Shown piece by piece: positions 13,496 through 45,932 of a DNA stretch of 64,000 nucleotides. Under the pieces are notes generated by a model. That model saw only the letters and a program-made list of their open reading frames with translations. It ran no database searches and was not told the DNA's origin. Positions within the stretch are counted from its first letter, which is position 1; every line of letters begins with the position of its first letter. The DNA is taken from assembly GCA_951406725.2 (NCBI GenBank), contig OX597816.1, positions 145,576,001 to 145,640,000 of the forward strand, in the 5' to 3' direction. Made by a program: the position numbers and the translations under genes. This stretch comes from Octopus vulgaris. Taxonomy: Eukaryota.

Positions 13496-14307
13496 ACCCT
13501 GTATTGATGAGCATTGTTCTATTATTCCATTACTCCATATTTTATGAACTATTCCATTACTCCATATAGTTTATGAACTATATTTGGAATACAAGACAAT
13601 ATAACTGATTTTACATATGAATATTACGGATTTTTGTAGAAAACTAACCAAGGAAGTATATATGGATTTAAAGACTCGCATCAAAAGCAGTAATTTTTCA
13701 AATTTTAAGTTAATGTATATTTCGAACAAACACCATTTCATAGTATTACTTCAAATTTAAAAAAAAAAAATACCATTCGATATGTTATACAAAATTCAAA
13801 TTTTATATCTGGGAAGAGGAGAAGAGTTGTCTATAAGTGCTTATCAATATAGGATTCTATTATAGGGACAGCACTTCCGTGAAACGATCGTAAGATGTTT
13901 TAAATACTTAATTCAAAACTTTTAAACTGTCATATACACATCATATATTTATACTTATACATATTTACATATATCTTTATAGACATTTATATATTTTTAA
14001 TACAACAATTATTTTTCACACGTGTATATCTTTCTGAAGAGTTTTCTGATATTGATTTCCTGATATTAATAATAATATATTATTAAAAAATATATTTATA
14101 CAATCGCTCGTATTAAGTATATAAATACTTAAATAGTATAAATACTTTGATACAATAGAGCACTCAACTCAATATAAATTCAGTATACAATATCTTCCTT
14201 GAATATATTTAAGTAAAACATTATATATACATATATACACACATATATTTATACATATATATATACATATATATATATACATATATATATGCATATATAC
14301 ATATATA

Positions 14308-14350
14308 TTGGCATGATTGGCATGGTTGCTGAAGTATAAAGACGTGTTTT
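14308..14350 (+). promoter_or_regulatory. Candidate internal Inr-DPE promoter of the LINE
   Basis: AGACG(TG) at 14340-14344 lies at +28..+32 from the A of a CA at 14313, just inside the element edge. Confidence 0.4.
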
Positions 14351-14758
14351 TACTCCTCTCCGTGCCGGTCAGCAGCAAGCTTCACAGCTACATTCGTCGT
14401 AATTGACCATCACATATATTCCTGTATATTTGAAACCACGCTTTTTCCCAACTCGTGAGTAGACTTTTCCTTAACCACAAAGTATTTTCATAATTTTCAA
14501 ACGACCAAATATTTTCAAACACCTTCTGATAACTAAAGGATCATCCACACATTAAAAATTAGAAAAAGAGGGAAAAAAAGAAAAGAAAAGAAAGATAAAA
14601 TAACTAGAAGCTCATAATTCAAATTCAAACTTCTCAGTATTACAGCAAACATTCTGTACAATCAATTCTACATACTTCTCCTTAAAAAAAATAAATAATT
14701 AAAAGTAATCAACAAAACAAACGAACAAAATAACATTTAATAAAACATATCAACCAGA

Positions 14759-16057
14759 ATGGCTAGCCACCAAAAATTCAACAAAAACTGGTCTGATAAT
14801 GAAGTCGACGTTCTTATCAACACATGGCATGGCCTTACCGAAACAAAGAGCATAGGTGCTTCGTGTCTGAACGAAATTGCTAAACGAACAGTTCACCATT
14901 TGCAAACTTGATCTGAACAGCAGATACAAAATAAATTAAAACAAATCGAAGTTGCTTTTAAATTAATAAATAAACACTTCGATAAACTGAGATGTGTTTT
15001 CTCTTCGAACGCATCACCGGCGCAGCAACAACAACAACAACCTCAACTACAACAAACTCAGCGGCAACAACAACAACAACAACAGCTACAGCAACAACAA
15101 CAACTTCAGCAGCAACAACCTCAGCGGCAACAACAACAACAACAACAACCTCAACAACAAACTCAGCGGCAACAACAACAACAACAGATACAGCAACAAC
15201 AACAACAACCTCAGCGGCAACAACAACAGGATGAACCACTCCTTGATTCATCTACAATGGCCGATTTGCTAAACGAAACGATTAACCCCCCAGTCACCAG
15301 GGTCACACAAGAGGAAGCACCACCCCTTCCTTTCACTGCCCCAGCAGCTCAATCATCATCATTGTCAACAACATCTCCTCTGCTTACTACTACTAGTACT
15401 ACTCCCACTATGTATCGACAAACATCTTTGTCTTGGAATCGACCGCCTCAATCATTACCACTGTCAACATCTCTTCTACCTACTACTACTACTACAACTA
15501 CTACTACTAATGCTATCTCAAGGAATTTACCTCCTACAGGTCACAAAGGTCGCCAAAACTTCAACAAACTATCATCTACACCTTTCACAACTCACACACA
15601 CACACGCACCTACACACCCACTCGAAACCCCATCATTTGCCGATATTCTCTTCGCCATAGACTGTGCACTGATAGAGACTGCAAATTCACCCATTTACCT
15701 GTAACAAAGCGCTCTATCCCCACAAACTACAACAGCAACCACCATAATACAACACCACCACAACCACCAATATCTCAAACAAGGAATCCCCAAATCTGCC
15801 GCTATTCCCAGCGGGACAGATTGTGTTTGCACAGGGATTGCCCCTTTACCCATCTTCCGGGGACCCGTCGGACATTTAAAGATAACCACTCACATAAGAA
15901 TAACCACAACCACAGTCACCTACAGTTCCCTAGACAGGAAACCACCTATTCTTCCTCTTTTTTAGCTATAATGAATCTAGCAAAAGAACTGGAAAAAAAC
16001 ATCCGAGCTATCACCCACCACCATCCACCACTATTACCCCACTGCACATGCCATTAA
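14759..16057 (+). pseudogene. LINE ORF1 (432 codons, one in-frame TGA at 14909): Myb/SANT-like + polyQ + S/T/P-rich linker + 2 CCCH zinc fingers
   Basis: ATG 14759 is in frame with the listed 15257 ORF. It reads MASHQKFNKNWSDNEVDVLINTW..QT*SEQQIQNKLKQI; 55 Gln in 69 codons (15023-15229); C-x8-C-x4-C-x3-H at 15638-15694 and 15797-15853. Confidence 0.85.
15023..15229 (+). repeat. (CAA/CAG)n coding repeat (polyQ in ORF1 frame)
   Basis: CAA runs punctuated by recurring CCT/ACT-CAG-CGG motifs; frame preserved. Confidence 0.95.
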
Positions 16058-19000
16058 AAAGCAATCAAATAAACAAATCACCAAAACAATTAAAACCATC
16101 CACTCTCGCCTCAACATTTCTGCTTAATGCCCAAAGGCATCAGCCCTTCCACCAATACACAAAAATGGAATATAAGATTCCTGGAGGACTGGGTCGAGGC
16201 CCATCCAAACCACATACCTTTCTTCGTCCTCACTGAAACCCATCTTAGTGACCTCCACTTGGAAGCCGAGGTGAAAGTTAAAAATTTCAAAACCATTCGT
16301 GCTGATCGTGCTGGCAGAAGAAAGGGTGGGACTGCCATTTATGTCCATGATTCATTCTCAACAGAAGCCATGAACATATTTTCCAATGGGTACTGCGAAA
16401 CAGTCGCTGTATTCAGTCAAACCAACAACTTAACAGTAGCTGGGCTCTACAGACCACCCCAAACGCCCCTACCATGCTTCAAGGAATGCCTCAACAGCAT
16501 AAAGTGTTTCATTCAGCAGTGTCAACCTGACAACATTTTAATGATGGGAGACTTCAACCTTCCCGGGGTTGACTGGTCTACAAACAGTCTGCCGCCAGGT
16601 TCTTCTCTCTCAACCCCTGACAGGGAGGCAGTGGAATCGCTTCTTGACTTCATGGATGATTTCTTCCTGTCCCAACTGGTACTCGAACCAACGAGATGTC
16701 ACAAAAACGTCTTAGACTTAATTTTCAGCAATCACATTGATACTATCCACAATATTGCAGTGGAGAAAACCCTACTCTCCGACCATGACATGGTTCTCTG
16801 TGATCTGAGATTTCACTGGCCAAAATGCAAAACAAATGTCATCCCTCCTGTTCATCCATTTGACACTATGGATTTCCACAATGCAAAGTGGGAAGCGATC
16901 AATAATGATCTTGCACAAGTCGATTGGTCCTTCACGCACACATACACACCCACTAACATCAAAAAGTCTTGGCAGTCACTTGTAGACACCATCACGAACA
17001 TATGTGCAAGACACACCCCATTAAGATCTGCAAACAAATCTAAGTGTCGAATCCCTAGAAATAGAAAATATCTCATAAGGAAAATTAAAAGAATTAACAA
17101 AATGACCAACATGCTGAAATACTGTCAACAGCAACACACCAATCTGACTGCCATCTCGTCGCTAGAGATTAAAAAACATAAACTCCAAAACAACATGATG
17201 TCTATCATCAATAGTCAGCGAAGAGCTGAAGAGGCCTGGGCCATTGAGAAGATCAAACTCAATCCCAAAGTGTTCTTTTCATTTGCAAAAAAACACAGAG
17301 TCTCTGGTTCTACTGTTGGCCCTCTGATTGATGAAAATGGTACTCTTCAAGACAATGCCAAAACCATGGGAGAGATATTGCAGAAACAATATTGCTCTGT
17401 TTTCAGCAATCCTGATATGACTGATCTGGGCTGTATCAGTGATGTTACTCCCCAATACACTTTATCGGACATAACATTTGCCGCTCCTGATGTCTTAGCA
17501 GCAATAAAGGAAATGAAGCATAATTCAGCAGTAGGTCCCGATAGGTTCCCTGCTTGTGTCTTGAAGATGTGTCAAAACCAACTTGCACCCCCTCTAGCCA
17601 ATCTGTGGCGGAACTCACTGGATGCTGGATATATACCAAAAGACTTTCTATCCCAGTCTGTTGTCCCAATTTTCAATAAAGGAAACAAATCGCTTGCCGT
17701 GAATTACCGTCCAATCTCACTCACCTCTCATATCATCAAGGTATTTGAGAGGGTGCTGAGATCGCGTATGACTCACTTCCTTGAGAGTCATAATATGCTG
17801 AACCCCAACCAGCATGGATTCCGTAATGGGAGAGATTGCCTGACGCAGCTACTGCATCATTTTGATGACATTTTGAGAGCCTTGGGAGAAGGTTCCAACA
17901 CTGATGTCATCTACCTTGATTTCAGCAAGGCCTTTGACAGGGTTGATCATAAGATCCTTCTGAGAAAACTGTCCAATATTGGTGTCACTGGAAAGCTGCT
18001 GCAGTGGATCAAGTGCTTCCTGTCTAACAGAACCCAAACATGTTGTAGTCGAAGGAGTCAAATCCAGCCCAGCCGAAGTCAGAAGTTGTGTCCCACAAGG
18101 CACTGTGTTGGGCCCACTTCTCTTCATCATCTACATAAATGATATTATTGACACCATCAAACACAGTAACATCAGAACCTTCGCTGATGATTCCAAGCTC
18201 CAGAAGGTCATCAATGGCGTGGATGACCGAATAAACCTTCAGTCAGACCTACTGGCTGTTGTCCAATGGGCGGAAAAGAATAACATGTTGCTAAATGAAG
18301 ACAAATTCGAACTGATCCACTTTGAAGGGAGGACGCTCTGAAACTCCCATACTCTCTTCCTTCTGGAGAAATTCTCATGGCATCCAACAACATCAGAGAC
18401 TTGGGAGTAACAGTGGAAAACAACATAAGCTGGGCTACACATATAAGCACCAAAGTTGACATGGCCCGCAGAATGTGTTCCTGGATTCTCAGAACCTTCC
18501 AGTCGAGATATTCCCACGCTATTATCCTTCTCTTCTCCACTTTTGCCCGACCCCACCTTGAATACTACTGTCCACTGTGGTCTCCCTACACAAAACAAAA
18601 TATTATGAGAATTGAAGCTCCCCAAAGGTCAATCACAAAAAAGATAGATGGCATGTCAGACCTTGACTACTGGGGTAGACTAGAGAAGCTGAAATTGTAT
18701 TCACTCCAACGACGCCGTGAACGCTACATTATCTGTATGATGTGGAAAATATTCCATCAGCACTGTCCGAATGATGTTGGCATCACCTTCAAAATGCATC
18801 CAAGGCTTGGACCACGTGCCATCCGTCCACAACAAAAATCTAAATCGCATCACATAACGACAATACGGCACAACTATTTCACCTCAATTGGACCCGCTCT
18901 CTTCAACATTACACCAGGACACGTCAAAAAAGAAACTGACCACACAAAATTCAAGAAGTCTTTGGACAAATTCCTTCAAACAGTACCGGACAAACCACCC

Positions 19001-19066
19001 ACACGCGGATATGTCTCCGCAAACAATAACTCTCTGCTCGAATGGGCCTTGGTGCCCAAATCCTGA
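16048..19066 (+). pseudogene. LINE ORF2: APE endonuclease + reverse transcriptase, ~1005 aa after repairing three 1-nt frameshifts
   Basis: APE motifs LNAQG, LTETHL, LYRPP, GDFN, LDLIF, SDH. RT motifs NYRPISLT, QHGFR, YLDFSKAFDRVDH, VPQGTVLGPLLF, FADD, RDLGV. C-terminal LYSLQRRRERY. Shifts at 16133-35 (+A), 18036-38 (+A) and 18324 (-G). Confidence 0.93.
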
Positions 19067-19107
19067 ACTGAAAGACTTCTCCAGGTGGTGCTATTAAGTT
19101 AGAGATG

Positions 19108-19121
19108 GGCCAATACTGGCC
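19108..19121 (+). promoter_or_regulatory. LINE 3'UTR stem-loop (candidate RT recognition site)
   Basis: GGCCA-atac-TGGCC; the sister fragment at ~12885-12898 (-) keeps the stem with a different loop (ataa). Confidence 0.6.
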
Positions 19122-19137
19122 AAAACCTTTCTAAGTT

Positions 19138-20579
<1,442 letters not shown>

Positions 20580-25690: not shown

Positions 25691-25754
<64 letters not shown>

Positions 25755-25764
25755 CAGCAGCAGC

Positions 25765-25829
<65 letters not shown>

Positions 25830-25836
25830 CAGTAGC

Positions 25837-25889
<53 letters not shown>

Positions 25890-25908
25890 CAGCAGCAGCA
25901 GTAGTAGT
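25691..25908. repeat. (TAG)n/(CAG)n/(TAT)n trinucleotide array
   Basis: Direct inspection; source of the poly-V and poly-L pseudo-ORFs. Confidence 0.97.
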
Positions 25909-26449
25909 AAGCGGAGGTATTTTATGTTCATTTTATTTCCATAACAGTTAGAATATATTTAAAATGAGATGTCTTTCTTCTTTCTTTTCGGAAATTTCCA
26001 CGCCATCTTGTTTGCATATCTCTCAGGTTTTTAGCATTTTTTGTGAGATTTTCATTTGTTGTATTGATTACAATATTTGGTTGATATTAATTCAGTGACA
26101 CGAACTTTCTAGTTCTTTTCTAAAGTAAACTATATTAGAACATTCACACTCTCTGCTTATTACTGTTATCTTTTTTTTCTTGTTTCCTTATATCATTCTT
26201 ACGCTTTATTTCATTTTCCCAATTTCTTGTTACTTTCATTTGCTTTATTCCAAGTTGTAATTTAATCTCTCCCAAACATCACCCATGTTCTTTGATATTT
26301 TTTTTTTATGAAACGAGAAATTGTTCTATAATACATATAAGAAGATAAGCTTCTAATTCAGAATGATATACGTTCTCGGGGATGTTTTCTTTTCTTGGAC
26401 TAACACTCTAGAATATGATTTTACTTTACATGGTTAATTTCATCAGAAT

Positions 26450-41654: not shown

Positions 41655-42170
41655 GGTGTATTGTTCAATAGGTCATTTTCTTCTAGGAGCATTATCAACT
41701 TCTTTCCATGACTTTACTGATATGAAAAGTCAGTGAGATTGGACTGTAGTTTTTGGCTTCGGCTCTGCTTCCGCCTTTGTGGATAGGGCATATAATGCCT
41801 TCTTACAGCTTTTTAGGGATCATACCACTTGCAAGGAAACTTTGGAAAAGTATCTGAAGAGATTTCGCTAAAGCATGGTTACATGACTTTAGAAGAATAG
41901 CTAGGAAGCCATCAGGGCCAGTGGCGGAGTATGAGTTCATTTCATTTATGGCCGCTGTTACATCTGTTTCCTCACTGTTGATGTAATCGATGGCTGGCGC
42001 CTTCTTTTTTAGAGCGGCAATTTCAAAGAATTCGGCCGGATTTTTTATCTGCGTTTGTCCAAGGGAGGAAAGTGAAGACACTTTTAAATTGTTCACTGAG
42101 TATTTCACTTATTCTTATTGGGTTCGCCATCATTGAGCCATTCCCTTGGCACAATGGTCACATTTGATAT
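41655..42170 (-). mobile_element. Decayed CR1-group RT fragment
   Basis: SYSATGPDGFLAILLKSC..LQILFQSFLASGMIP..ICPIHKGGSRAEAKNYSPISL. Confidence 0.85.
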
Positions 42171-42243
42171 TGTATTGTGGCTGTTTCTTTTGTGAATTCA
42201 TAGAAAGATTTGGGATTTGATTTTATACTTCCCACCGCATTTG

Positions 42244-45734: not shown

Positions 45735-45932
45735 ACTCAACCAAGTTTCCCAAGTTCTGGTCATAGACCATAGAACACTCAACCAAGTTTCCCGATTTCT
45801 GGTCATAGACCATAGAACAGTCAAGCAAGTTTCCCGAGTTCTGGTCATAGACCATAGAACACTCAACCAAGTTTCCCGAGTTCTGGTCATAGACCATAGA
45901 ACACTAAACCAAGTTTCCCGAGTTCTGGTCAT
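45735..45932. repeat. 42-bp minisatellite, ~4.7 units
   Basis: actcaaccaagtttcccgagttctggtcatagaccatagaac-like units starting at 45735, 45777, 45819, 45861 and 45903. Confidence 0.95.

Follow-up and report, generated by a model that had tools for sequence, protein, structure and literature searches.

A Myb/SANT-like ORF1 domain, probably captured, and a conserved slippery heptamer in a young octopus CR1-group LINE: a likely route to a fused Myb, CCCH-finger, endonuclease and reverse transcriptase chain

What kind of protein is encoded by a reading frame of the octopus genome that joins a Myb/SANT-like N-terminus to a glutamine tract and CCCH zinc fingers, and how would such a protein serve the element that carries it? 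The window analysed here is a stretch of 64,000 nucleotides of Octopus vulgaris DNA, and its positions 14759–16057 are the ORF1 of a full-length, young octopus CR1-group LINE, which we call family A (Table 1). Dispersed copies, 5′ truncation and a short tandem 3′ tail are traits of that group found here, and the ORF2 domains PF14529, PF03372 and PF00078 all score above the Pfam cut-off. A preliminary description of the locus had placed the ORF1 start at ATG 14759, in frame with 15257 and separated from it only by TGA 14909. Translation of 14759–16057 agrees, the TGA, at codon 51, being the sole internal stop in 432 codons. It is specific to the window copy, since CGA stands at this codon in every one of the 29 sisters that the 30 best-scoring loci include; contigs from four of four public runs carry C at 14909. 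Of the proposal that CGA had become TGA by CpG decay, the C-to-T change is real and the decay is not evident as a process: 5 of the 69 substitutions against one sister are CpG transitions (106 CpG sites), and a uniform rate predicts about 3 such changes. Because of this stop and the three ORF2 indels (near 16133, 18036 and 18324) the window copy is dead, while family A itself is young.

Table 1. Parts of the family A copy in the window and its flanking tracts.
Feature	Positions	Strand	Basis
Full-length CR1-group LINE copy, family A	14310..19138 (ends approximate)	+	Unbroken alignment to sister L044; junctions compared among sisters
5′ UTR, about 450 nt	14310..14758	+	5′ end common to sisters; anchor-to-ATG 407–445 nt
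ORF1, 432 codons, broken by TGA 14909	14759..16057	+	Translation; sisters
Myb/SANT-like three-helix domain, aa 9–83	14783..15007	+	PF13837 in intact sister; model; fold neighbours; dN/dS 0.13–0.25
Private nonsense codon TGA, CGA in sisters (conserved Arg before helix 3)	14909..14911	+	29/29 sisters; R51 invariant in 17 aligned LINE domains
Gln-rich linker, (CAA/CAG)n microsatellite, variable length	15023..15229	+	55 Gln in 69 codons
Thr/Pro/Ser-rich low-complexity linker	15230..15625	+	Composition; translation
CCCH finger 1, C-x8-C-x4-C-x3-H, copy of the clade's last finger	15638..15694	+	Finger alignment
CCCH finger 2, duplicate of finger 1	15797..15853	+	Finger alignment
T_TTT_TTA heptamer, ORF1 frame (Phe-Leu), predicted −1 frameshift site	15958..15964	+	Identical in 8/8 lineages
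ORF1 C-terminal amphipathic segment from conserved x-F-L, putative helix	15956..16024	+	Helix from sequence pattern; position conserved in families A, B, D and relatives
ORF2 frame (APE endonuclease and RT), −1 overlap with ORF1, three indels	15934..19066	+	Pfam Exo_endo_phos_2, RVT_1
3′ UTR, short tandem tail, no poly-A	19067..19138	+	Core common to families A, B, D
(TA)n tract, 3′ junction	19137..19287	.	Repeat scan
TA-rich tract, 5′ side	14218–14308		Repeat scan

The youth of family A is evident from its copies. In the 2.8-Gb host genome its 5′ part gave at least 40 matches at 98–100% identity among 134 candidates, and its 3′ end gave 1834 candidates. Seven full-length copies have a mean ORF2 identity of 99.3%, and in five of them ORF2 stays open for 1034 codons, counted from the heptamer; ORF1 is open, with both fingers and the C-terminal helix, in 17 of 29 sisters. 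A protein search of the genome (best 150 of 770 candidates) returned 97 matches at 72–100% and 53 at 53–59%, the latter mainly from a second family, B, whose elements share the layout of A and have a short Gln linker. PF13837 has 43 matches in the genome, and the 20 retrieved comprise 5 host-like loci and 15 copies of an older LINE family, D; those that are readable encode the Myb domain, a short Gln stretch and four CCCH fingers. At four loci (L031, L032, L043 and L145) copies of A, B and D adjoin with only TA tracts between them, as if inserted into each other's flanks. In L031, L032 and L033 an indel in the T run puts ORF1 and ORF2 in one frame of 1416–1468 codons, and these fused frames may be real or may be homopolymer assembly errors. 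Synonymous difference between A and B is 0.46 in the RT, 0.62 in the endonuclease and fingers and 0.75 in the Myb; together with a 3′ UTR core that barely differs among A, B and D, this suggests 3′ exchange or strong constraint. Another abundant young CR1-like family of the octopus has an (ATT)n tail and a 949-codon ORF2, and no ORF1 was seen in the two copies inspected (L211, L212).

The N-terminal domain is of Myb/SANT type, as had been read from its residue pattern, and is under purifying selection. Taken as an isolated domain, it scores with Myb_DNA-bind_4 (PF13837, gathering cut-off 27 bits) at 27.7 bits in family A (intact N-terminal 87 aa), 31.2 in B and 35.0 and 42.3 in D; the full-length family A ORF1 falls below the cut-off with 22.3 bits, and older copies give 17–24. 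All ten best named matches in the ESM atlas lie in the Myb/SANT clan (score 0.88), which we take as a lead only. When 1.84 billion proteins were searched with a profile built from 8 LINE domains, seven matched: three close relatives, one O. vulgaris ORF1 fragment and three host tandem Myb/SANT proteins. A word-based protein search with the first 90 aa as query yielded none. Structure prediction from 8 sequences gave a shallower model (pLDDT 64.9) with no coherent fold match. A second model, from a 17-sequence LINE-only alignment, reached pLDDT 82.5 with a predicted three-helix fold (helices 13–30, 37–44, 53–72 and 74–83), and most of the structures that resemble it are homeodomain, Myb, SANT or GARP domains. 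c-Myb, GT-1 and TRF1 are among the 50 shown, as are residues 147–199 of the R2 protein (Z 6.0, rmsd 2.1, 53 aligned); no structural match is strong, the best Z being 6.6 and no Foldseek E falling below 0.001. In the two unsaturated comparisons, dN/dS of the Myb is 0.25 (0.09–0.64) and 0.13 (0.07–0.34), beside 0.13 in the fingers, 0.12 in the endonuclease and 0.09 in the RT. Two basic residues of the predicted recognition helix, R51 and K61, are invariant in 17 LINE domains, and an aromatic residue in helix 2 of host domains is lost in families A and B. On balance, we predict that the domain binds DNA, a view that we favour modestly.

The rest of ORF1 is made of parts of very different stability. 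What had been described as a 69-codon Gln tract does span 69 codons and is impure, with 55 Gln and a longest pure run of 7. It is an unstable microsatellite linker: it measures 12–57 aa in the 28 sisters where it is measurable and is short in B and D, on which grounds its interpretation as a conserved functional module was rejected. The two C-x8-C-x4-C-x3-H fingers lie 53 aa apart, just as first reported, and conform to a motif, P-x2-C-x8-C-x4-C-x3-H-L-x2-T-x-R, whose eight invariant columns hold in ten of ten aligned fingers; the octopus finger aligns with the last finger of the non-octopus relatives. All Pfam CCCH models, zf-CCCH included, stay below cut-off for these fingers, and the nearest solved sequence to the finger profile is that of the Nab2-type CCCH fingers (E 0.0099), a weak match of 12 residues only. 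A word-based search with the ctenophore finger region found one protein only.

When were these parts assembled? The reverse transcriptase phylogeny suggested in the preliminary description comprises 45 RTs, rooted on RTE and drawn from a set of 175 plus five of the octopus genome, with L2, Jockey and I outside it. Families A, B and D cluster together (UFBoot 98) and join (100) a group holding a ctenophore element with a non-Myb ORF1, all within a CCCH-ORF1 clade (93) whose sister group is the canonical CR1-like elements (95). Outside the octopus, the nearest ORF2 sequences share about 40% identity across the first 480 aa. A CCCH finger array is present in the ORF1 of L051, L054, L056, L057, the ctenophore protein P0023 and P0114. 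Non-octopus ORF1s in which the N-terminus is present begin with a helical region and a PHD-like Cys finger, and the LINE-Myb profile matched none of seven non-octopus ORF1s (the six fingered ones and L052; two are 5′-incomplete fragments). By sequence comparison the CCCH finger is ancestral to this LINE clade and the Myb was seen only on the octopus branch. An ancestor likely gave up a PHD-like N-terminus, took on a captured Myb/SANT domain in its place and retained the CCCH finger. A provisional parsimony order would run from a PHD-like domain with a finger array, through replacement of the N-terminus by Myb (D), to loss of three fingers and duplication of the last (A, B). Fingers were seen in the ORF1 of 6 of about 110 clade tips of a larger tree, and because ORF1 is known for few of these tips, the Myb gain could predate the octopus branch and its date is provisional. 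That the transcription-factor-like architecture was gained as a unit is not supported, since the finger is old, the Myb new on the octopus branch and the Gln tract unstable. Four metagenome CR1-like elements (L061, L068, L072 and L113) have an ORF1 that looks esterase-like by eye, judged by what we take to be esterase motifs; in published surveys the esterase-like ORF1 type is found in vertebrates. Proto2, a first guess at the identity of the octopus element, was dropped, its RT grouping with CR1 and not with RTE. CR1-Zenon, described in the accessible part of PMC13343379 as a CR1-related group of molluscs and crustaceans without ORF1 and with a poly-A tail, was likewise rejected as an identity, the octopus LINE having an ORF1 and a tandem-repeat tail, against the published definition.

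The overlap of the two reading frames holds a signal that the preliminary description had missed. ORF2, in the −1 frame relative to ORF1, overlaps it, and an identical U_UUU_UUA, which we take to be a slippery heptamer of the HIV-1 type, lies in the ORF1 frame in all eight lineages: families A, B and D and the five non-octopus loci that hold an ORF1 end (one D copy is frameshifted before the site). It stands 32–134 codons before the ORF1 stop, at the Phe-Leu with which the C-terminal segment starts; four kinds of codon precede it (Ser, Pro, His and Asn), and the −1 frame opens 2–9 codons upstream and runs into the endonuclease. The same bases occur at 1 of 35 other Phe-Leu pairs in the ORF2s of these lineages (p 1.6e-6, octopus counted once), and the T run is kept in 29 of 30 family A loci. 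No ATG precedes the first endonuclease motif in 5 of 8 lineages. A programmed −1 frameshift leading to a predicted ORF1-ORF2 fusion is, from the sequences, the likely explanation. Overlap of the ORFs in CR1-like elements is mentioned in older notes. Canonical CR1-like elements (L058–L130, metagenome), meant as negative controls, came out positive, so that frameshifting is probably not special to the octopus family: in 26 of 33 the two ORFs overlap with a −1 shift, and a slippery heptamer followed by an open −1 frame is present, as a raw count, in 21 of 33. Their heptamers are A_AAA_AAC (often, at a conserved Lys-Asn), G_GGA_AAC, C_CCT_TTA and T_TTA_AAC. Sequence comparison suggests that −1 frameshifting may be common in invertebrate CR1 LINEs; in the accessible part of a frameshifting review, HeT-A and TART are the only non-LTR elements mentioned.

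TA-rich targets had been proposed for this element, and its insertion sites are indeed of that kind. The 5′ junctions are TA-rich in 23 of 30 cases, against a background of 6.4%. (TA)3 occurs no more than 30 nt from the 3′ end in 29 of 29 cases (one was skipped for Ns) and from the truncated 5′ end in 13 of 16, against a window background of 11%. At the 3′ ends of a control LINE, a CR1-like family from the octopus genome in which two copies showed no ORF1, the figure is 8 of 24 (p 5e-8). Families B and D also end in TA. The TA adjoins truncations at many different points, which argues that it belongs to the target; target-site duplications are not definable because both flanks are TA repeats. 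Since the endonuclease of the control LINE differs too, the TA preference is a correlation only and cannot be assigned to the Myb.

How might these parts work together? The architecture, the sister copies, selection, the tree position, the heptamer, the overlap and the TA-rich insertion sites are observed, and we consider it likely that a captured-Myb ORF1 and the conserved heptamer give a fused Myb-fingers-endonuclease-RT chain. Most ribosomes would probably make free ORF1p, which would coat the RNA of the element through its CCCH fingers; with slightly greater assurance, a minority of ribosomes would slip at the heptamer and supply the enzyme, with Myb, linker, fingers, endonuclease and RT on one chain. 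If the Myb binds DNA, it could, by analogy with R2, help to hold the enzyme on the target and bias insertion to TA repeats, a tentative idea against which it counts that the endonuclease alone could do the same. A wider scheme, which we regard as rather doubtful, would make the enzyme of invertebrate CR1-group LINEs a frameshift fusion and their swappable ORF1 reader (PHD or Myb) a targeting module, the octopus Myb swap having rebuilt an R2-like Myb-finger-RT protein that steers thousands of insertions into TA microsatellites. A competing account, to which we give slightly less than an even chance, keeps the architecture and the frameshift and denies the Myb any part in targeting. The TA preference would then be due to the endonuclease, or to the tandem tail pairing with the nicked strand, and the Myb would serve in RNA binding, chromatin contact or autoregulation of the promoter in the 5′ UTR. 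The family A tail ends in TTA and runs directly into (TA)n, SANT-type domains in general often bind proteins and not DNA, and L120, a relative without an assigned ORF1 type, has a (TACA)n 3′ flank, all in keeping with that account; nevertheless, the two non-Myb relatives L054 and L057 have no TA tract at their readable 3′ flanks, and the invariance of R51 and K61 also speaks for targeting.

Could ORF2 instead have a start of its own in the overlap, an ATG or a non-AUG codon reached by reinitiation or leaky scanning, with the heptamer no more than a conserved Phe-Leu and no fusion formed? We think this improbable. An in-frame ATG does follow the heptamer by 29 codons in family A, 24 in D and 32 in L056, and the one in family A, at 16048, overlaps the ORF1 stop in a way that resembles the known coupled stop-start LINEs. 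Structure downstream of the heptamer is also weak, no conserved stimulatory RNA structure being found in eight sequences, pseudoknots excluded (z −2.06 to +0.97). Separate translation, however, leaves unexplained why the same seven bases recur in every lineage although Phe-Leu has many codings, and why the −1 frame opens just upstream each time in lineages most of which have no usable ATG. Far less probable still is that the N-terminal domain is a generic helical hairpin with a coiled coil, resembling Myb/SANT by chance. The Pfam score of family A is borderline (27.7 against 27), and PDB sequence searches with the Myb alignments matched RecX and GCN4 chimeras and no Myb, but family D reaches 35–42 bits, host Myb/SANT proteins come up when the whole library is searched reciprocally with the LINE-only profile, and the independently built model has Myb and homeodomain neighbours. 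For the fused chain, which we prefer, the conserved frameshift signal offers a more direct route from Myb to integration than the putative tethering by a condensate-prone ORF1p that had been put forward.

The element combines traits of several known systems. CR1-lineage LINEs of the Jockey superfamily (PMC4120745) likewise have two ORFs, an APE and RT ORF2 and a short tandem tail, with a modular, swapped ORF1 as here, and the octopus RT clade is sister to canonical CR1. Table 1 of that survey (Metcalfe and Casane 2014) names PHD, RRM, CCHC, Tnp22, esterase, coiled coil and zf/lz modules, and the terms Myb, SANT, CCCH and frameshift are absent from its main text; the impression that the combination is new among described ORF1 modules therefore holds as far as the accessible part of that survey goes. 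The R2 protein carries an N-terminal Myb beside zinc fingers on the RT chain, which recognises target DNA, and, in the accessible part of PMC12503042, has a single ORF, a C-terminal restriction-like endonuclease, C2H2-type fingers and an rDNA target. In contrast, the octopus LINE has a PF13837-type Myb in a separate ORF1, joined to its APE endonuclease only if frameshifting occurs. The same domain family includes MSANTD-like host proteins and plant trihelix GT-1. PIF/Harbinger Myb-like proteins also belong among the Myb_DNA-bind_4 proteins. In the five host-like octopus loci with the PF13837 domain, no CCCH or RT follows it, and in L131 and L132 a low-complexity linker does. In HIV-1 gag-pol, U_UUU_UUA is read in the frame of the RNA-packaging ORF, close to its end, and opens the polymerase frame; the octopus LINE has the same heptamer and layout, but is a non-LTR element, and no strong hairpin was found downstream. 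Within the accessible parts of the literature searched (PMC10294476 and PMC5009743 included; Repbase, Dfam and subscription papers lay outside it) we found no Myb/CCCH LINE ORF1 and no −1 frameshifting in CR1. A term search of the accessible part of PMC5203782 gave no match, and its supplements may list such domains for L1. The CCCH clade may already be catalogued in Repbase, Dfam or subscription papers.

ORF1 swapping is a known habit of these LINEs; the frameshift signal has the wider reach and lends itself better to testing. Two questions about LINEs at large, how most of them translate ORF2 and what lies behind the frequent exchange of ORF1 domains, may be advanced by a seven-base, clade-wide signal testable by a simple reporter and by a dated series of ORF1 swaps in one genome (PHD-like with fingers, Myb with four fingers, Myb with one duplicated finger). 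Should ORF1 be fused to the enzyme, those of its domains that read chromatin or DNA would act directly in targeting. Family A, young, with open frames and a strong preference for TA repeats, is a candidate force in shaping octopus genomes as well as a natural model for site-biased insertion. Around the ORFs of the window copy, some further features were seen. Its extreme 5′ end (14310–14340) is unlike that of most sisters and common to L003, and short 5′ units are repeated in it and in L025. A diverged tandem duplication of about 540 bp (19283–20200) directly follows the 3′ TA tract. Elsewhere in the window there are an older LINE RT fragment on the minus strand (41701–42238), 34–51% identical to family B ORF2, a 42-bp tandem array (45735–45932; 4.7 copies, 94%) and a long (GTA)73 array (25691–25909).
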